Below are positions 7,850 to 47,390 of a DNA stretch of 64,000 nt, piece after piece. The notes below the pieces were generated by a model. That model ran no database searches, had not been told where the DNA came from, and saw only the letters and a program-made list of their open reading frames with translations. The position numbers and the translations under genes are program-made. Source of the stretch: Clostridia bacterium. GTDB lineage: Bacteria > Bacillota > Clostridia > UMGS1883 > UMGS1540. The stretch lies in NCBI GenBank assembly GCA_045590195.1, contig JAZNQN010000044.1, forward strand, positions 100,889-164,888, given 5' to 3'. The first letter of the stretch is position 1. Every line of letters begins with the position of its first letter.

Positions 7850-8721
7850 TCACCCCCATATACATATTTGGCCGTAACATATTTTACAAGCGCCATAGCA
7901 ACGAGCAAAATTGCCATAAGAATAAATGCAATCGCCGCCGCAAAGTGAAGATTATTTGCAATATATTGGCCTTCAATAGCATCGCCTATGAGGAAAAACT
8001 TTCCGTTACCAAGCTTTTGCGAGATATAAAATGTGCTGATAGAAGGAATTAAAACCATAGTAATTCCCGATACAATACCCGGCATACTTAAAGGAAAAAC
8101 AACTCTTTTCATAACAGAAAAGCTGCCACAGCCAAGGTCTCTCGCGGCTTCTAAAAGGTTTAAATCAAGCTTTGCCAAAATTGAGTAAATAGGCAAAACC
8201 ATATATGGAAAATAATCGTAAACCATACCAATTATAACTGCAGTTTCCGTTCCTATAACGCTTATTGGCATTATGCCTAATTTAGAAAGAGCAGTATTTA
8301 TAATACCGGTATCCTGCAAAATAGTCATCCATGCGTATGTTCTTATAAGAAAGTTCATCCACATTGGAATCATAATAAGAGTAACCATTGTTTTTTGAGT
8401 TTTTTCTTTGGCACGTGCCATAATGTAAGCGATAGGATATCCCATTAAAAGGCACACTGCCGTTGAAATTACTGCAAGTTTTAAAGACCTTGCAAAAATT
8501 AAAAGGTAAGTACGAACTTCTCGGGTTGAGCCATCGTCTTCCAAAACATTACTTGTTGCCGTAAAAAAGCGAGTAATATTTTCAGTTGTGAAAGCAAAAT
8601 TATTGTCAGTAAAAGCATAATAAGCCACGAATATAAGCGGAACTATTACAAAAAGAACCGACCATACCGAGTATGGCGCAAGTGCCGCACGGTATGTATT
8701 TTGATTGTTTATTTTTTTCAT
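7846..8721 (-). CDS. potB: ABC transporter permease, PotB-like
   Basis: Polytopic permease, translationally coupled to potA and potC. Confidence 0.85.
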
Positions 8722-9836
8722 TCTTCGCCTTCACCTCCGGGGTTTGAAAGCTCGTCAAGCTCATTTGAAAACGAAGAATAATCGCCAAACATACCTGAAT
8801 ATTTCGATTTTTTCATAATGTGAATTGCATCAGGATCAAGAGAAATTCCGATATAAGAATCTTCGTAAACGGGGTCGGTTGTCTGAATCATCCATTTAAA
8901 GCCGCCAATATCAACAATTGCCTCGTTATGAACGCCCATAAATGTTACAGAAGTAACTTTTCCGCAAAGCATTCCATTGTCAGGCGATACAATGTCAACA
9001 TCTTCAGGGCGGATAACAACATCAACTGCCTCGCCCTTTTCAAAACCTTTGTCAAGGCATGAAAAAGTATGTCCGCCAAATGAAACTTTAAAATCTTCAA
9101 GCATAACGCCGTCAACTATGTTACTTTCGCCAATAAAATCGGCAACAAAGGCGTTTGCAGGCTCGTTATAAATATCTGTTGGCGTGCCGATCTGCTGAAT
9201 TTTACCCTCGCTCATAACAACAATTGTGTCAGACATACTGAGGGCCTCTTCCTGATCGTGAGTTACAAATATAAATGTAATTCCGGTATTTTTCTGAATT
9301 TTTTTAAGCTCCTGCTGCATATCTTTACGCAGTTTTAAATCAAGTGCACCAAGAGGTTCGTCAAGAAGTAAAACCTTTGGCTCGTTAACAAGCGCTCTCG
9401 CTATGGCAACCCTCTGCTGCTGACCGCCTGAAAGGCTTGTAACCTTTCTGTCGGCAAAGCCTGAAAGCATAACCATTTTAAGCATTGCGTCAACTTTTTC
9501 TTTAATTTCATCTTTTGGAACTTTTCTCTCTCTTAAAGGAAAAGCCACATTTTCAAATACATTAAGATGGGGAAACAATGCGTATTTCTGAAAAACTGTA
9601 TTTACGTGTCTTTTATGAGGAGGTACATCGTTTATTCTCTCTCCCATAAAAATCACGTCGCCATTGTCGGGGTTTTCAAATCCGCCGATAATTCGAAGAG
9701 TTGTTGTTTTACCGCAGCCTGAAGGGCCAAGCAAGGTAATAAACTCATTGTCGTGAATATCAAGGCTTATGCAGTCGAGAACCATTTCATCGCCAAATGT
9801 TTTGGAAATATTTTTAAGTTCAATGATTTTTTTCAT
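8718..9836 (-). CDS. potA: ABC transporter ATP-binding protein, PotA-like (with C-terminal TOBE-like domain)
   Basis: Walker [10 protein letters not shown], signature [15 protein letters not shown], Walker [12 protein letters not shown]. Start set at MKKIIELKN (9836) with an upstream GGGGA RBS. The 14-codon GTG extension in the track overlaps a terminator hairpin and is rejected. Confidence 0.9.
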
Positions 9837-9895: not shown

Positions 9896-10232
9896 ACTTG
9901 TAAACAAATATTACGATATTTTACCGATAAATACAGAAAACCCATCACAAAAAATACCGGTATGCTAAATCGCAATCAGATCAGAGTCTATATAGTAAAG
10001 ATTACTTTTACTACTCTTATTGACCATTTCACAAGCTTATGCCCAAGGCATTTTCGGTTATAAAGTAACCAACTTATAAAACTGAGCTTTTAACTCAATC
10101 AATAAGGCAACTAAAGTCGCCAACCCTAAAGGGTTTTTCGGCATTCGACCCGGCTGTCCGTATGGCCTTAGTCTAAAAATAGACGGTCTTAAATCTTACT
10201 TTGGAAACACTGCTCCAATTGAGATCCATTAA

Positions 10233-10640: not shown

Positions 10641-10715
10641 GGAGCTGGTGGCGTGAATCGAACACGTGACCTTTTCATTACGAGTGAAATGCTCTACCGA
10701 CTGAGCTACACCAGC
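10640..10715 (-). tRNA. tRNA-Thr (anticodon CGU), 76 nt with encoded CCA
   Basis: Hand-folded: acceptor GCTGGTG/CACCAGC, D-arm GCTC/GAGC, anticodon stem TTTCA/TGAAA with loop CTCGTAA, T-loop TTCGATT, 3' TCCA. One A:C mismatch at the base of the T-stem. A TTGCGA/TAGAAT-like promoter lies just upstream at 10722-10760. Confidence 0.85.
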
Positions 10716-34636: not shown

Positions 34637-35641
34637 TTATCTGAATTTTCTGTCAACAAAGCCAATTCTTCTATGTACTTTCGAAAGTGTTTTTGCCGCA
34701 ATGCGTGCAGCTTTTTCAGCACCCTCTTTATAAACTGTTTCAATATAGTCTTTGTTTTTTACAAGGTCGTCATATTTTTCTCTCACAGGTGCCAAAGCTT
34801 CAATTACAGCCTCTGCAACCCTTACTTTAAAGTCGCCATAGCCAAGGCCGGCAAATTCATCTGCCGCTTTTTCGGGAGAAATACCGCAGATTGCACCATA
34901 AATCGAAAGAAGATTACAAATACCGTCTTTTCCTTCTTTATACGCAATTTCGCCGTCGCTATCTGTAACAGCACGTTTTATTTTACGCATAATTGTATCA
35001 GGGTCATCAAGTATCCAGATATATCCGTTAGGATTAGGGTCGCTTTTACTCATTTTTGCAGTTGGCTCCTGAAGTGACATAATTTTAGCCCCAACAGGCG
35101 GAATATATCCTTCGGGAACTTTAAAAGTATCGCCGTAAACGCCGTTAAATCTGCCTGCAATATCCCTTGCAAGCTCAAGGTGCTGTTTCTGGTCAACCCC
35201 AACGGGTACAACATCTGTCTGATAAAGCAAAATATCGCTTGCCATAAGCACGGGATATGTAAAAAGACCTGCGTTAATATTTTCCTCGTGTTTTGCAGAT
35301 TTATCCTTAAACTGTGTCATACGGGAAAGCTCGCCCATATAAGTATAACAGTTTAAAATCCAGGAAAGCTCTGCGTGAGCAGAAACGTGTGACTGGAAAA
35401 ACATTATCGACTTCTCGCTGTCAATTCCGCAGGCAAGATACTGGCAGAGAAACTGCATACATCTTTTGCGAAGCTCCACGGGGTCTTGTCTTACAGTGAT
35501 TGAATGCATATCAACAACTGAGAAAAGACAATCGTATTCATCCTGAAGTTTAATCCAGTTTTTAACCGCTCCTATATAATTACCAAGGGTAATACAGCCG
35601 GTTGGCTGAATACCGCTGAAAACTCTTTTTTTCTGTTCCAT
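34637..35641 (-). CDS. trpS: tryptophan--tRNA ligase
   Basis: FSGIQPTGCITLGNYIGA (HIGH-like) and KMSKS (AKMSKSD). 334 aa. Confidence 0.92.
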   Translation of the reverse strand: MEQKKRVFSGIQPTGCITLGNYIGAVKNWIKLQDEYDCLFSVVDMHSITVRQDPVELRKRCMQFLCQYLACGIDSEKSIMFFQSHVSAHAELSWILNCYTYMGELSRMTQFKDKSAKHEENINAGLFTYPVLMASDILLYQTDVVPVGVDQKQHLELARDIAGRFNGVYGDTFKVPEGYIPPVGAKIMSLQEPTAKMSKSDPNPNGYIWILDDPDTIMRKIKRAVTDSDGEIAYKEGKDGICNLLSIYGAICGISPEKAADEFAGLGYGDFKVRVAEAVIEALAPVREKYDDLVKNKDYIETVYKEGAEKAARIAAKTLSKVHRRIGFVDRKFR

Positions 35642-35649
35642 TTCGTCAC

Positions 35650-36834
35650 CTATTTATATTCTTTAATAACATCGCCCAAAATTTTAATACCTTTGTCAAT
35701 TTTCTCTTCATCAGGAAGTGAAAAGTTAAGTCTTAATTCATTTGATGGGGCTGACATATCGATTTGTGCAGTAGAGCCTGATACAAATGCTACGCCTTTG
35801 TCAATTGCAACTTTGAGCATTTTGTCGCAATCGTAGCCTTCAGGAAGTGTACACCAGAGGAATATACCGCCTTCAGGTCTTGTATATTTTGCAAAAGAAG
35901 GAAAATATTTATCCATAGCAGTAAGCATTGCATCGCATCTTTTGCCATAAAGGTCACAGCTTTTTTTGATGTGGGCATCAAAATCGTATCTTTTAAGAAA
36001 CTCTGCCGCCATCATCTGTGTTAAAACAGGAGTATGTACATCGGAAACCTGCTTACAGATTACCATTTTTTCCATAATGTCTTCCCTTGCAACTGCGAAA
36101 CCAATTCTCATACCTGATGACAAAACCTTTGAAAGTGAGCCTGCGTAAATTACTCTGCCCTCAGTATCCATTGATTTAATTGTTGCAACATCTTCGCCTT
36201 TGAAACGAAGCTCGCCATAAGGATTATCCTCAAGAACGTAAAAATCGTATTTTGAAGCAAGCTCTAAAATTTTCTTACGTTTTTCAAGGCACATTGTAAT
36301 GCCTGAAGGATTCTGGAAAGTTGTAATTGTATAAAGAAGTTTAATTTTCTTTTCTTTTGCAACTTCTTCAAGCTTATCGGTATCAAGGCCATCTTCCATT
36401 ACGGGAACACCGTAAAGGTCTGCCCCGTATGAACGGAGAGCATTAAGGCCACCAATAAATGAAGGCGCTTCAACTGCAACCGGATCGCCCTCGTTAATTA
36501 AAGTTTTAAAAGCCAAATCAAGCGCCTGATTGCCACCTGTTGTAATTATTACTTTATCGTGTGCGTGAATGTTACCTAGTTTATTCATTCTGCCTTCGAT
36601 AAATTCAAGAAGCGGGCCGTAGCCTTCTGTAACGCCATACTGAAGGGCAACAGCACCGTTATTTTTTATAATTTCAGCCGCAATTTCCGAAAGCTGTTCA
36701 GTTGGGAAAAGCGCCGGTGCCGGTGCTCCGCCTGCAAATGAAATAATTCCGGGTTTTGCGAGAAGTTTAAACATTTCTCTTATAGCAGAGCCTTTAAGTG
36801 GCGCCACTCTGTCTGCAAATAACATAAATTCCAT
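35650..36834 (-). CDS. PLP-dependent aminotransferase (class I/II fold)
   Basis: 394 aa. Aminotransferase class-I layout with a conserved SLSKVLSSGMRIGF PLP-lysine region. Confidence 0.82.
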   Translation of the reverse strand: MEFMLFADRVAPLKGSAIREMFKLLAKPGIISFAGGAPAPALFPTEQLSEIAAEIIKNNGAVALQYGVTEGYGPLLEFIEGRMNKLGNIHAHDKVIITTGGNQALDLAFKTLINEGDPVAVEAPSFIGGLNALRSYGADLYGVPVMEDGLDTDKLEEVAKEKKIKLLYTITTFQNPSGITMCLEKRKKILELASKYDFYVLEDNPYGELRFKGEDVATIKSMDTEGRVIYAGSLSKVLSSGMRIGFAVAREDIMEKMVICKQVSDVHTPVLTQMMAAEFLKRYDFDAHIKKSCDLYGKRCDAMLTAMDKYFPSFAKYTRPEGGIFLWCTLPEGYDCDKMLKVAIDKGVAFVSGSTAQIDMSAPSNELRLNFSLPDEEKIDKGIKILGDVIKEYK

Positions 36835-36894
36835 CTCCTAAATTTAGATTACAGTATATTTTATCATATTCAAGTGTAAAAGTAAATACAAAAG

Positions 36895-37506
36895 TTATTT
36901 CTTTTTCTTTTTCTTTTTCTTTTCTATTAAAATCTTTTCTATTGCCTCTAATTCACATATGCAAAGTGCAGATTTACTATTTATCGAAGCATATTTTAAA
37001 ATACTTTTTTTGTAAAAAATTAATTCTTCTACAGAGTATATTTTTAAAAATTCATATCTTTCATAGATGAATTTTTCCTTTGAATAAATTCTATCATTTA
37101 ATTTAAAATACAATTTTCCCTTTTCTTGCATTTCAGTATGTGAAAGTTCCAAAGAATAACGCATGTCAAATTTTTCAATAAAGACCGGTTCCTTAAAAAC
37201 TGGATTGTATGCCACTTTTTTATGGTATTCATCGATATGTACATATTTTTTCTTTAGCGAAACATAATTTATCCAATACGCCAAGCCAACTCCTAAAATA
37301 GTAACATCCCCAACTACAAAGATAGACGAAACGAGTACATATAAAACCCGAATTACAAAATAAGAAATAACACCATTTATCATTGCTACATAATTTGCTT
37401 GTTGCTTGGTCATTGAATTATTTTTAGGCTTATAAACAAAAATCGGGTAAATAAAATAAATTATACTTGATAAAATTAAAAATAATAAAGAAATCATCTT
37501 TCGCAC
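36895..37506 (-). CDS. hypothetical membrane protein (about 3 N-terminal TM helices, soluble C-domain, C-terminal poly-Lys tail); strongly AT-rich gene
   Basis: AAGAAAGAGGTG RBS 7 nt before the ATG. The hexanucleotide (TTTTTC)n on the + strand encodes EKKKKKKKK. G+C is far below the flanking genes. Confidence 0.75.
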   Translation of the reverse strand: MRKMISLLFLILSSIIYFIYPIFVYKPKNNSMTKQQANYVAMINGVISYFVIRVLYVLVSSIFVVGDVTILGVGLAYWINYVSLKKKYVHIDEYHKKVAYNPVFKEPVFIEKFDMRYSLELSHTEMQEKGKLYFKLNDRIYSKEKFIYERYEFLKIYSVEELIFYKKSILKYASINSKSALCICELEAIEKILIEKKKKKKKK

Positions 37507-37534
37507 CTCTTTCTTAAACTAATTGTACTTAACT

Positions 37535-39907
37535 CTATTTAAGCTCTACAACGGTTACACCATCGCCGCCTTCGGAAAGCGCTCCCATTCTGAAAGATTT
37601 AACCGAGCGGTTGCTTTTTAAAAACTCGGTAATACCTGCTTTTAAAACGCCTGTTCCGCGGCCGTGAATAATAGTTACTACGTTGTGATGGCTCATAACC
37701 GCATCATCGAGATATTTGTCAACTGCGGCAATAGCATCATCGAGTATCATTCCTCTTAAATCAATTTCACTTTTAACGGCATTGCCTTTATAAAAAGCTG
37801 CAGGAATTTTTGTTTTAGGCTCTTGTTTTTTAGGCTTTGATGCCATAATTTCAATGGTTGAAAGTTTTGTTTTAATTTTCATTCCGCCAACCATAACCTC
37901 TAAATTGCCATTTTTATCAGGAAGCGACAAAACCTCGCCCTCGGCGCTCATTGCGGGGAGATAAATGTCCATTCCTATTTTAATTTCTTCGGGTTTTGGA
38001 TTTTTATGGGTTTTGAAAAGACCACGGGTAAGTTTATCGTCAATCTCGCCGATATTTTTGCCAAGAGAGTTTCTAGCCTCCTGCATAACTTTTGCTTTTT
38101 CTTTATAAGTTCCCCTTGCCGCCCTTTCAATTTCACGCATTTTTTCCGAAATTTCACTTTTGGCATCTTCAAGCATTTTCTTGGCCTCTCTGCGTGCCTC
38201 GTCCAAAATTCTGTCACGCATTTTCTTTTGTTTTTCGTCTTCTGCCTTTAATTTATCTTTAATGCTTTGCGCCATCTGGCGGTCACGCTCGGCCTGTTTT
38301 GAAACGTTTTCAGCCTTTATTCTGTTTTTCTCAAGCTTTGAAACAATATCTTCAAACTGAGTGTTTTCGGCATCTACAAGGCCTCTCGCCTCGTCGATTA
38401 CACTATCCGCTATTCCAAGCCTTTTGGCAATATCAAAGGCACAGCTTTTACCAAGTGCACCAACATAAAGCCTATAAGTAGGCTTCAGGGAATTTACATC
38501 AAATTCACAGGCCGCATTTTCCACTCCGGGGGTTGAAAGAGCATACATTTTTATTTCGCTATAATGAGTTGTTGCCGCAACCAAAGCGCCTTTTGCACGA
38601 ACATTTTTGAGTATCGCCGTTGCAAGGGCAGCTCCCTCGGCAGGGTCGGTTCCTGCGCCAAGCTCGTCAAATAAAACAAGGCTTTTTTTGCCGCAATTCT
38701 TTAAAATTCCAACAATATTTACCATATGTGATGAAAAAGTTGAAAGAGATTGCTCAATACTTTGTTCATCGCCTATATCTGCAAAAATTTCGTCGAAAAT
38801 ACAAAGGCGTGAGCTTTCGCGGCAAGGCGTGTGAAGGCCGCATTGTGCCATTAAAGAGAAAAGGCCAAGGGTTTTAAGGGAAACGGTTTTGCCGCCTGTA
38901 TTAGGGCCGGTTATAACCAAAGTATCAAAATCTTCGCCAAGGCGGATATTTATTGGCACTACCTTCTTTTTATCAATAAGCGGATGCCTTCCATCTTTAA
39001 TATCTATTATATTTTTATCGTTAATCTGCGGTTTTGCCGCCTCTATACTATCTGCATAAGCGGCTTTTGCAAATATAAAATCAATGTGAGAAATTATTTC
39101 AAAATTATCGGTAAGATTATCGGCAATTTCGGCTATCTCGCCTGAAATTTCTGCCAAAATGCGTTCAATTTCTTCTTTTTCGTCAGCCGCAAGTTCACGA
39201 ATCTTATTATTTGTTTCAACAACTTTCATTGGCTCTATAAAAAGTGTACCACCGCTTTGGGAAGTATCGTGAACAACGCCGCCTATAGAAGATTTGTATT
39301 CACTTTTTACGGGAACAACATATCTGTCGCCGCGCATGGAAACAATTGGCTCCTGCAGTGCCTTGGCATAAGATGGCGAATGGATTATCTCCTGCAAAAT
39401 ATCTTTAACCTTATTCTGAAGCGACATCTTTTTTCTTCTTATTTCTGAAAGCTTTAAAGAGGCATTATCATCTATTTCGCTATCGCTTAAAATGCAGGAG
39501 AAAATTTTGTTTTCACGAAGCTTATCTTCATAAAGCAGATTTTTATATTTAAGCAAAAGAGGAAACTGCTCCTCGAAATTATCAACGCTGAAATATATTA
39601 TAATTGTTCTGGCGCTCCTTAAAACGTGGCCAACTGTCAAAAGCTCGCCACATGAAAGCGTTGCCCCTATTTTAAGCCTTTTAACTGCCGCCCCTATTTC
39701 TGAAAGGGGCACAACCGGCGGGCGCGAATGTTTTACTGTAAAAACTCTGCCCTCATCGGTTTCGTTTAAAAGCTTTTCAACTTCCGAAAGCGATGAAGAA
39801 GGCTCAATTTTTAAAAGCGCCTCTTTGGTTTTATTCATAACTGCAAATTCTGAAAGCTTTTCAAGTATTTTATCAAGTTCCAGTATTTTTCTTACTTTTT
39901 TGTTCAT
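37535..39907 (-). CDS. mutS2: endonuclease MutS2 (MutS domains + C-terminal Smr)
   Basis: Walker A GPNTGGKT, and a C-terminal Smr domain (DLRGMILDDAIAAVDKYLDDA…HGRGTGVLK). Start at MNKKVRK (39907) with a GGGAG RBS. Confidence 0.92.
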   Translation of the reverse strand: MNKKVRKILELDKILEKLSEFAVMNKTKEALLKIEPSSSLSEVEKLLNETDEGRVFTVKHSRPPVVPLSEIGAAVKRLKIGATLSCGELLTVGHVLRSARTIIIYFSVDNFEEQFPLLLKYKNLLYEDKLRENKIFSCILSDSEIDDNASLKLSEIRRKKMSLQNKVKDILQEIIHSPSYAKALQEPIVSMRGDRYVVPVKSEYKSSIGGVVHDTSQSGGTLFIEPMKVVETNNKIRELAADEKEEIERILAEISGEIAEIADNLTDNFEIISHIDFIFAKAAYADSIEAAKPQINDKNIIDIKDGRHPLIDKKKVVPINIRLGEDFDTLVITGPNTGGKTVSLKTLGLFSLMAQCGLHTPCRESSRLCIFDEIFADIGDEQSIEQSLSTFSSHMVNIVGILKNCGKKSLVLFDELGAGTDPAEGAALATAILKNVRAKGALVAATTHYSEIKMYALSTPGVENAACEFDVNSLKPTYRLYVGALGKSCAFDIAKRLGIADSVIDEARGLVDAENTQFEDIVSKLEKNRIKAENVSKQAERDRQMAQSIKDKLKAEDEKQKKMRDRILDEARREAKKMLEDAKSEISEKMREIERAARGTYKEKAKVMQEARNSLGKNIGEIDDKLTRGLFKTHKNPKPEEIKIGMDIYLPAMSAEGEVLSLPDKNGNLEVMVGGMKIKTKLSTIEIMASKPKKQEPKTKIPAAFYKGNAVKSEIDLRGMILDDAIAAVDKYLDDAVMSHHNVVTIIHGRGTGVLKAGITEFLKSNRSVKSFRMGALSEGGDGVTVVELK

Positions 39908-39968: not shown

Positions 39969-41000
39969 TTACTCTGCATCAAATTCTTCTTTATACAAAA
40001 CTTTTCCCGAAAGATTTGTAAAATATGATGCGCCTTCATATCTTCTGCTGAAAATTTTATTATCGACAACAGAAATGCTGTTAACATAGCCGGTTTCTCC
40101 CAAAAACGTTGCTTTTCCGCTTTTAATGTTAACTTTATAAATGCCATCTTCGCCTGTAAGCAACAACTGGCCACTATGATAATTCATTTTAGAAACATCT
40201 GAAATTTTTTCATAATCAGCGGAATTGAAAATTTCGGCTCTTTCGCCACTTTTCTTATTCACAGTATAAACTTTCATTTCTTTATAGTTTACAACGAAAA
40301 TTTTACTACCGCTTACAAAAATGGGTTTTTCAAATTCTCCGGCGGAGCAAACTATTTCACTTTCTCCGTTTGAAATGTTAATTCTTTCAACCTTACCGTC
40401 GTTGAAAACATACATTTTGTTATCAGATATAACTGCATTACCTCTGCAAAAGCCTTTAAGGGCTGAGGTTTTAATATCAAAAACGTAAACACTTTCGTCG
40501 ATTAAAAAATAGATGCTGTTTTTATTATTTCCAATTACAGAAACTTCTTTTTCTGCTGAAAGTTTTAAAAGTTCTGACTTAACCCTTTTTTCGGGGGAAT
40601 ATCTGCACAAAACATTATCTTTTACATAATAAAGGTCGCCCTCTACTTCATTTAAGCAGAATATTTCGCCGCCTTTATCAATAAGTTCTGAATTTTTAAA
40701 TCTTTCATCAATTCCGCAAAGTTCATCGCCATCGGAATAATAAAAATGGTTTCCTATTTTTTCTGCATAGGACATATTTATCCCATTACCATTTTCTTCG
40801 CCCTCAACTTTAAAGCCTGATGCGTAAGAAATTGCCCATACAAGGGCAGAAATAATCAGAACCGACAAAAGCATAACTATTATCAGTTTGCCGCGGTTTG
40901 AAAGCTTTTTCTTTGGTTTTTTAGGCTCTTCAAAAACATCACAATCTGGACAGAGCGTACTGCCGATTATGAGTTCTTTGCCACATTTGGGGCAAGTCAT
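39969..41000 (-). CDS. zinc-ribbon/TM/beta-propeller-like protein (DUF5050-like), function unknown
   Basis: CPKCG…CPDC zinc ribbon, one TM, repeated hydrophobic/aromatic blades. ATG at 41000 is 6 nt after the ADH stop. Confidence 0.75.
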   Translation of the reverse strand: MTCPKCGKELIIGSTLCPDCDVFEEPKKPKKKLSNRGKLIIVMLLSVLIISALVWAISYASGFKVEGEENGNGINMSYAEKIGNHFYYSDGDELCGIDERFKNSELIDKGGEIFCLNEVEGDLYYVKDNVLCRYSPEKRVKSELLKLSAEKEVSVIGNNKNSIYFLIDESVYVFDIKTSALKGFCRGNAVISDNKMYVFNDGKVERINISNGESEIVCSAGEFEKPIFVSGSKIFVVNYKEMKVYTVNKKSGERAEIFNSADYEKISDVSKMNYHSGQLLLTGEDGIYKVNIKSGKATFLGETGYVNSISVVDNKIFSRRYEGASYFTNLSGKVLYKEEFDAE

Positions 41001-41005
41001 ATATA

Positions 41006-42097
41006 TCAACCTTTCAGGCTTAAAATTTCTCTTTCCTGCAGAAAATCAATTTTCCACGGATTTAGCGCAACATTTGCAGCTTTTATTGTTTTTTCTGCAA
41101 AACGGGCTGCCTCTTCATCTGTTACCGGTGTTTCGGGCAGATTAAGTTTTTCAAAAAGATTTTTGAAACCTTCGTAATCTTTACAGCCAAGTGCCTCGAA
41201 AATATCTTTGCAATCCTCGGGTACATTTTCGTTTGCAAATCTCATATAAGGAATTAAAAGTTTTCCGTTTGCAAGGCCGTGAGGCATATCTTTATAATAA
41301 GTTAAAGCATAGCCCATAGAGTGAACAACAATTGTTCCTGTTTGTGCTATTGCAACGCCGCCAAGCATAGCAGCGTGCAAAAGTGCCTCCCTGTCTTCAT
41401 CGGGAATTGGGAAAAGATTTGTTTTTTCAATGTGTTTGCCCAAAATTTCAAGGCCTTTAAGAGAAATCGCACGGCTATCTGCTGTGCATTTTTTGCTTAA
41501 AATACCTTCTATAAAGTGGCTCATTGTATCAAGAGCGGTATTTTTAGCAATACTTTCAGGCAAATCTTTAGTATATCTTGCATCTAAAAAGGCAAGGGCA
41601 GGAAACATCCAGTCGCCTTTGGCTGTAACTTTTGTTTCTTTTTCGGGCACTGTTAAAACGCTGTACTGAGTAGCCTCGCTTCCGGTTCCTGCTGTTGTTG
41701 GAATTGCCACAAACGGAAGAGGACTATTTTCGGGCTCGTCATAAATTTCCATAGGCTCAATATCGTTTGCAGCATAAAGAGCAGCCGCTTTACCAAGGTC
41801 GAGTGGCGAGCCGCCGCCTATTCCCACAACGAAATCGGCTTTGAATTCTTTCGCAAGCTGACCAGCCTCGAAAGCATTGGCAACTGTCGGGTTATTCTGC
41901 ACATTGTCATAAACAACATAGCAGATTGAAAGCCCGTCTAAAACGTCCTGCACATCGTAAAGTGCACCGCTTTTTGCACCTGATGTTTTACCCGTTACAA
42001 TAAGCGCCCTTTTTCCAAGGCGGGAAAGTTCCTCGCCGTTATCAAATATACATCCTCTGCCTTCAAAAATTTTAGTAGGCATATAAAATCTTTCCAT
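41006..42097 (-). CDS. iron-containing alcohol dehydrogenase family protein
   Basis: GGGSPLDLGKA motif and His-rich metal site typical of Fe-ADH. Confidence 0.85.
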   Translation of the reverse strand: MERFYMPTKIFEGRGCIFDNGEELSRLGKRALIVTGKTSGAKSGALYDVQDVLDGLSICYVVYDNVQNNPTVANAFEAGQLAKEFKADFVVGIGGGSPLDLGKAAALYAANDIEPMEIYDEPENSPLPFVAIPTTAGTGSEATQYSVLTVPEKETKVTAKGDWMFPALAFLDARYTKDLPESIAKNTALDTMSHFIEGILSKKCTADSRAISLKGLEILGKHIEKTNLFPIPDEDREALLHAAMLGGVAIAQTGTIVVHSMGYALTYYKDMPHGLANGKLLIPYMRFANENVPEDCKDIFEALGCKDYEGFKNLFEKLNLPETPVTDEEAARFAEKTIKAANVALNPWKIDFLQEREILSLKG

Positions 42098-47216: not shown

Positions 47217-47390
47217 ATGATAATAATATATCCGGCTTAATTATTTTTTTATTTTTTCTCCTTCTTTTTTTAAAATATTACAAAATTATTTTAAAATTTT
47301 GTTAAAAATTTATATTTTTCCTTGCAAAAAAGCGAAAAAAAGGTTATTATATATATTAGGTAATTTTATTTTCTAAAAGGAGTGTTAAAA

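Follow-up and report, generated by a model that had tools for sequence, protein, structure and literature searches.

A short AT-rich reading frame between mutS2 and an aminotransferase gene raises the question of whether it is a real gene at all and, if it is, how it came to lie among housekeeping neighbours and what its product may do. Throughout, the window denotes the whole 64-kb stretch of DNA that was analysed, and the gene in question is called the orphan. The locus is made up of the following features, in the order of transcription:

37535-39907, minus strand: mutS2, 790 aa (Pfam MutS_V, MSSS and Smr on identical or near-identical proteins)
36895-37534, minus strand: the whole insertion of 640 bp, leader plus ORF (pairwise and multiple alignments with the empty sites L001, L064, L065, L068, L070 and L071)
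37504-37511, minus strand: near-consensus Shine-Dalgarno sequence (SD) AAGAGGTG, 6 nt upstream of the ATG (read from the sequence)
36895-37497, minus strand: coding sequence of the orphan, 200 aa plus TAA stop, with its ATG at 37497-37495
36853-36886, minus strand: conserved aminotransferase-trpS promoter, TTTACT, 17 nt, TG-TAAAAT (promoter scan and alignment)
35650-36825, minus strand: PLP-dependent aminotransferase, 391 aa (PF00155, PF12897)
34637-35641, following the aminotransferase gene: trpS (PF00579 on the trpS ortholog)

A single uninterrupted stop-free frame fills positions 36895-37506 of the minus strand, as the preliminary description had it. When the 700-nt interval was shuffled 20,000 times, no shuffle reached the 207 stop-free codons of this frame (maximum 159), for which reason we take the orphan to be a coding sequence and not a chance ORF; the analytic probability of such a run is about 8e-10. 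The start codon, in contrast, has to be revised. The frame had been read as 203 aa initiated at a GTG, but the ribosome-binding site cited for it, AAGAAAGAGGTG, itself contains that GTG, which lies at 37506 and forms the last triplet of the SD. Initiation at ATG 37497, 6 nt downstream of GAGGTG as read from the sequence, yields 200 aa, the same length as the NCBI protein P0001, its sole database entry. As the GTG sits within the SD, the GTG-R-K-ATG sequence seen here is not usable as a dual start, and the 'dual-start' holin motif was rejected. A comparable ambiguity is seen at the neighbouring aminotransferase gene, where an ATG at 36834 (MEFMLF...) falls inside that gene's own SD AGGAGATGG (36825-36834, minus strand), and where database proteins and all orthologs start at ATG 36825 (MLFADR..., 391 aa).

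In base composition the orphan stands apart from everything else in the window. Its G+C content of 25.5% is the lowest among 55 ORFs (mean 38.6%, sd 3.1), none of the others falling below 33.8%, and across these 55 crude gene calls it is also the lowest at each codon position (GC1/GC2/GC3 of 32/21/23% vs 49/35/32%). When G+C was scanned along the 64 kb, 0.08% of 612-nt windows were as AT-rich as the orphan, every one of them overlapping it. The compositional break that first drew attention to the gene is therefore present but had been overestimated: mutS2 (39.8%), the aminotransferase gene (39.6%) and trpS (40.9%) lie near 40% and not at 45-50%, with 38.4% for the window as a whole, and the contrast amounts to about 14 points and not to 20-25. 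Other low-G+C patches, at about 10.8-11.5, 29.8-30.4 and 47.0-47.9 kb (the last covering an intergenic gap at 47217-47381), were ruled out as similar coding outliers, which leaves the orphan as the sole one.

A low G+C content may simply mirror the encoded protein, and amino-acid composition does explain much of it here, with FYMINK residues at 48% vs 32 ± 4% and GARP residues at 10% vs 22%. Synonymous choice contributes too, so protein composition alone is not the cause. Leucine is encoded by TTA in 12 of 19 cases (63%; host genes average 18%, and none of 54 exceeds 32%; binomial P = 3e-5), and by CTT in only 2 of 19 (11%, host 59%; P = 2e-5); all eight asparagines use AAT (host 53%). Overall the synonymous shift is moderate (GC3s 0.20 vs 0.27 expected from host usage, z = -2.2). 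The dinucleotide signature showed nothing unusual for a 640-nt tile, a length at which this measure is not discriminating.

The predicted product is a membrane protein with a long basic end, laid out as follows:

37432-37491, minus strand: TM helix 1, residues 3-22 (Kyte-Doolittle windows > 1.6; AF2 helix 2-21)
37318-37395, minus strand: TM helix 2, residues 35-60, after the +3 loop KPKNNSMTKQQA (hydropathy, AF2)
37258-37305, minus strand: TM helix 3, residues 65-80, after the tight turn VVGD (hydropathy, AF2)
36898-37257, minus strand: basic domain, predicted to be cytoplasmic, residues 81-200, net charge +11, pI 9.5 (charge)
36918-36943, minus strand: two copies of the 11-nt motif AATAGAAAAGA, spaced 15 nt (IEKIL/IEKKK; repeat search, family D8)
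36898-36923, minus strand: hexanucleotide array (AAGAAA)x4.3 encoding the K8 tail (TRF, (TTTCTT)x4.3, 100% matches)

Hydropathy and composition thus agree with the earlier outline of three N-terminal TM helices followed by a 120-aa Lys/Tyr/Glu-rich domain, the latter being rich in Lys (14.6%), Tyr (9.5%), Ile and Glu. Basic stretches occur in the loop after TM1 (net +3) and in the segment after TM3 (LKKK...); since both fall on the same side, the positive-inside rule gives an N-out/C-in orientation, with the basic domain and the K8 tail predicted to lie in the cytoplasm. Single-sequence AF2 draws TM2 and TM3 as one long helix, although hydropathy and charge suit three TM helices in this orientation, and its model of the whole protein is weak (pLDDT 64). 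Modelled alone, the C-terminal domain reaches a pTM of 0.61, with a sheet of three strands and then three helices over residues ~120-199. Fold searches returned generic helical matches only and no fold match.

Both the EKKKKKKKK ending and the hexanucleotide microsatellite behind it, noted at the outset, were recovered. The eight lysine codons of the tail strictly alternate between AAG and AAA, while the other lysine codons of the orphan divide into 14 AAA and 7 AAG. This alternation, together with the adjacent duplication, points to past local repeat expansion as the source of the tail, which would have grown by AAGAAA hexamers. It also limits A-runs to 5 nt, which avoids the kind of sliding on homopolymeric A that has been reported for successive AAA codons (PMC4363877). 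With a unit of 6 nt, slippage stays in frame, but with only 4.3 in-frame copies it is doubtful that the tail is hypermutable at present. A phase-variable simple-sequence contingency locus, acting as a switch of frame or promoter spacing, was ruled out by the 6-nt unit, the 4.3 copies and their location at the extreme 3' end.

No family had been recognised for this protein, and wider searches did not change that: neither a housekeeping family nor any other relative was found at the level of proteins, profiles, metagenomes, viruses, phages, plasmids or PDB sequences. A word-indexed search of 5.8 billion clustered proteins and an exhaustive phmmer search of 1.84 billion representatives each returned the orphan protein itself only, the protein cluster of P0001 is a singleton, and an exact-sequence contig look-up of P0001 gave no record. 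There was no match in NCBIfam or among PDB sequences, no significant match in PHROGs and no hit to any PADLOC family. Back-translated peptide scans of JGI metagenome contigs and IMG/VR, as well as tblastn against phage and plasmid records, detected no relative, and no paralog or source sequence lies in the window or in any of the 75 loci searched, out of 77 fetched. In Pfam nothing exceeded threshold, the best scores being 16 bits for FTR1 and 16.5 bits for DUF4870 against cut-offs of about 25. The DUF4870 alignment (PF09685, a small multi-pass membrane domain; E = 0.0086, gathering score 25) spans the three TM helices, residues 6-80 aligning to profile positions 11-84 of 107; as FTR1, an unrelated permease, scores the same, this weak match probably reflects hydrophobic composition only.

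Comparison with relatives is what turns an anonymous gene into an insertion. In the nearest genome within the GTDB species set, a Clostridia MAG whose MutS2 is 85% identical (L001), mutS2 is followed by 88 bp, the aminotransferase gene and trpS, with no orphan, and alignment with the window gives a clean 640-bp indel. Five further empty junctions were found via aminotransferase orthologs (86-98% protein identity), with these spacers between mutS2 and the aminotransferase gene:

L068: 71 bp
L064: 82 bp
L065: 87 bp
L070 and L071: 89 bp

The relatives fall into three subclades, all of them species other than that of the window (aminotransferase-gene DNA identity <= 90%), and because each of the three includes empty sites, the ancestral junction is the one without an insert. 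The gene is thus not conserved in position, six related lineages having 71-89 bp only at the junction. A chimeric query joining the MutS2 C-terminus to the aminotransferase N-terminus found only distant relatives (<=45% identity) among metagenome contigs.

The insertion lies between the stop codon of mutS2 and the -35 box of the aminotransferase-trpS promoter. That promoter, TTTACT-17-TGnTAAAAT, is kept in 9 related sequences and is intact directly downstream of the insert. The preliminary description placed the gene inside a housekeeping operon; the housekeeping neighbours stand, but the aminotransferase-trpS unit has its own conserved promoter, which puts the orphan at the boundary of two transcription units. 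Within the downstream unit, only 8 nt separate trpS from the aminotransferase gene, and the two therefore appear to share a transcript. No terminator-like site was seen between mutS2 and the orphan, and promoter-like sites within the insert numbered 8, compared with 5.5 ± 2.5 in shuffles, none of them standing out. A short direct repeat, AAATA(G/A), is present at both insertion ends, which is weak evidence in AT-rich DNA; neither terminal inverted repeats nor a convincing target-site duplication was found, and this single gene between core genes has no integrase, tRNA or inverted repeats beside it. The mutS2 stop codon (37535-37537, minus strand) is TAG in the window and in L077, the second sample of the species described below, and TAA in every relative without the orphan, a difference consistent with a left insertion boundary inside the stop codon itself.

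Three other lineages carry different DNA at this junction (L063, L066 and L067/L076), and the region between mutS2 and the aminotransferase gene is clearly labile. In L063 (JGI 3300029305, positions 1-179), the 3' end of an unrelated gene, with a product ending in IVALPAGIITAEYIKMLGSKD, takes the place of mutS2 directly upstream of the conserved promoter; the aminotransferase there is 89% identical, and the contig begins within the unrelated gene. L066 (SRR24260327) has a different, non-mutS2 sequence. In a sister species (run SRR27608053; L076:5001-5054 and L067:1-82), the space between mutS2 and the promoter holds a GC-rich hairpin element of ~55-70 nt, with core TCAAAGATTGCGGNCGGGTA, in two or more copies that have diverged from each other. 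The end of the hairpin unit, GTTGTAGTTACAATAA, mimics the mutS2 3' end GTTGTAGAGCTTAAATAA, and its RNA folds have only a slight margin over shuffled sequence (z = -1.9). No copy occurs in the window or in any of the other 75 loci, and neither the element, the other alternative junction sequences nor the insert matched Rfam. All these inserts, the orphan block among them, fall between the mutS2 stop and the conserved promoter; only about 10-35 nt there are free of function, so a shared insertion position is expected from selection and is by itself no sign of a site-specific mechanism.

A second sample of the species comes from JGI metagenome 3300031555 (L077), a contig whose MutS2 shares a 90% cluster with that of the window. 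Along window positions 41753-37419 the two are colinear at 97.9% identity (89 mismatches, no gaps), and the contig's mutS2 is 97.6% identical, with 46 synonymous and 8 non-synonymous codon differences. Past the same TAG stop, 116 nt remain to the contig end, which falls 79 nt into the coding sequence; they comprise the leader and the first 26 codons of the orphan and are 100% identical to the window, although zero differences over this length is not significant (P ~ 0.06). The orphan therefore occurs in two independent samples of one species.

In our view the orphan is probably a genuine, taxonomically restricted ORFan, acquired horizontally as a compact, promoterless SD plus ORF block of 640 bp. 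The suggestion that a single gene had been acquired by transfer is supported by the six empty junctions and by the foreign synonymous codon usage. As the analysis turned up neither a donor nor a phage context nor any hallmark of a mobile element (integrase, tRNA, inverted repeats), the transfer is inferred from absence in relatives and from composition only; the block may have come from an AT-rich phage, a plasmid or another Firmicute. Given an insert with no promoter or terminator of its own, transcription would most likely arise by read-through from mutS2, and translation would start at ATG 37497 behind its optimally spaced SD. The product would then insert into the membrane with its basic domain facing the cytoplasm.

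The serious alternative to a functional ORFan is an AT-rich insert whose ORF has no selection at the protein level, be it a neutral passenger, a 3'-truncated donor fragment with a stop and tail made at the junction, or a de novo 'TM-first' proto-gene. We consider it unlikely, while acknowledging that several observations speak for it. No homolog exists among about 15 billion proteins, and hydrophobic or basic peptides with much Phe, Tyr, Ile, Asn and Lys are what AT-rich DNA specifies by default. A 'TM-first' model of gene birth has been discussed (PMC12315717). The K8 tail, moreover, is a product of repeat expansion, and the orphan stop lies within a few nt of the right junction with AAATA(A/G) at both ends, so that tail or stop could be junction-derived. 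An open frame of 200 codons at 25% G+C (P about 1e-9), the near-consensus SD at 6-nt spacing, three well-formed TM segments obeying the positive-inside rule and the compactness of the C-terminal 80 residues in single-sequence AF2 (pTM 0.61) argue in the other direction. Birth in situ is impossible, as an empty site of 71-89 bp could not have given rise to the ORF.

It is very unlikely that the orphan is an ancestral gene of this junction which other lineages have precisely deleted. The lability of the junction, with other sequences in L063, L066 and L067/L076, would favour such losses, but three or more subclades would have had to delete the gene cleanly and independently, with a spacer of the normal 71-89 bp left every time. 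In addition, the codon usage of the orphan is unlike that of host genes, none of the 75 loci searched, out of 77 fetched, has a remnant of the ORF, and more distant relatives carry unrelated genes downstream of mutS2.

This last point bears equally on the idea that the orphan is a diverged ortholog of a conserved small membrane protein normally found after mutS2, which we regard as improbable in the extreme. In Bacillus subtilis, mutSB is followed by yshE, and L005 has a low-G+C, 159-aa multi-TM ORF directly after mutS2. However, the downstream neighbours are diverse in the 39 loci, out of 40, with enough downstream sequence, none of them, L005 included, resembles the orphan (best blastp E = 2.9), and no Pfam family exceeds threshold; a conserved mutS2-downstream membrane protein was therefore rejected as the orphan's identity. 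The L005 ORF (MutS2 50% identical; ~8489-8968, plus strand), unrelated to the orphan and with 39% G+C next to a mutS2 of 50% G+C, is nonetheless a second case of a low-G+C small membrane gene 3' of mutS2.

An assembly or binning artefact, with reads of a low-G+C organism built into the contig as a chimera, is conceivable in what is probably a metagenome-assembled genome and with several related contigs breaking at the junction. It is effectively refuted, as L077, an independent contig, reads across the left junction without a difference, gene order resumes on either side of the insert within a single contig, and the right junction can be aligned base by base to the promoter found in relatives.

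Returning to a horizontally acquired ORFan, what might such a protein do? It is possible, though not probable, that it is an accessory protein at the level of strains, with its site of action at the membrane, for example in phage exclusion or abortive infection, or in a holin-like or toxin-like manner; its polybasic cytoplasmic end would then contact anionic lipid or nucleic acid. There is a comparable chance that it is merely tolerated as a passenger and does little or nothing. Any defence or holin-like role is conjecture by analogy, and no phage or mobile-element context was found for a phage-exclusion, Abi or toxin role, with zero PADLOC families and nothing significant in PHROGs.

Two analogies are worth setting out. 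AbiP of Lactococcus and PdpSau of S. aureus prophages, of an abortive-infection type that confers phage resistance with membrane depolarisation on infection, have in common with the orphan an N-terminal membrane anchor, a positively charged cytoplasmic C-terminal domain and the status of a single accessory gene (PMC10127798). They differ in having one TM helix where three are predicted for the orphan, and in their OB-fold-like nucleic-acid-binding domain, of which none was recognised in the orphan model; the orphan, for its part, has chromosomal housekeeping neighbours in place of a prophage or plasmid context, and neither a PADLOC match nor sequence similarity to them. Class I holins of the lambda S type (PMC3359269) have three TM helices in an N-out/C-in orientation, an arrangement that the hydropathy and charge of the orphan would fit but in which AF2 joins TM2 and TM3; they resemble the orphan in their highly charged basic C-terminal end. 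An endolysin lies adjacent to them in a lysis cassette, whereas the orphan is flanked by mutS2 and the PLP aminotransferase gene with no phage context. Moreover, the cytoplasmic part of a typical holin comprises a few tens of residues, compared with about 120 in the orphan, with a net charge of +11 and ending in K8, and no holin family in Pfam or PHROGs matched at E up to 10.

A bolder version of this idea, which we hold to be improbable, would make the orphan the founder of an undescribed class of single-gene membrane effectors, anti-phage or holin-like, residing in a mutS2-downstream hotspot and with a tail length tuned by in-frame slippage. If that were true, the gene in L063 and the hairpin-repeat array in L067/L076 would be other cargo of the hotspot in sister species.

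Set against what is known of bacterial ORFans (Daubin and Ochman 2004; Yu and Stoltzfus 2012, PMC3514957; reviewed in PMC12315717), the orphan is in many respects ordinary. Short length and AT-richness are typical of ORFans and of phage or phage-derived genes (PMC12315717, PMC3514957), and the orphan is likewise short, AT-richer than its host, confined to one species and devoid of detectable homologs. It differs from ORFans found in clusters of atypical genes or integrative elements (Cortez 2009, PMC2718499) in being a single gene, and from other ORFans in being unusually well delimited. Six empty sites for comparison and an independent contig of the same species make it a clean case, with sharp bounds, of the way in which an ORFan appears, apparently as an SD plus ORF block dropped into the sole permissive few nt that separate a stop codon from the promoter after it. 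Examples of this kind supply material for working out where ORFans come from, a question yet to be settled (PMC12315717); as a protein, the orphan adds one more anonymous accessory membrane protein and no new principle. The variation seen just after mutS2 may also be of use for telling strains or species apart in this uncultured Clostridia genus.

Some further observations concern the surroundings of the locus. Upstream of mutS2, a gene of 346 aa (39969-41009, minus strand; G+C 34%) encodes a zinc-ribbon-like CxxC...CxxC N-terminal segment followed by a TM segment. It is 55% identical to its ortholog in L001, neighbouring genes being 85-94% identical, and appears from its sequence to specify a fast-evolving envelope protein near the orphan. 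No T-box leader was detected anywhere in the window. Rfam matches at gathering level were obtained on the minus strand at 10138-10189 and 10643-10715, for the SpF59 sRNA / ldcC RNA motif (68.5 bits) and a tRNA.
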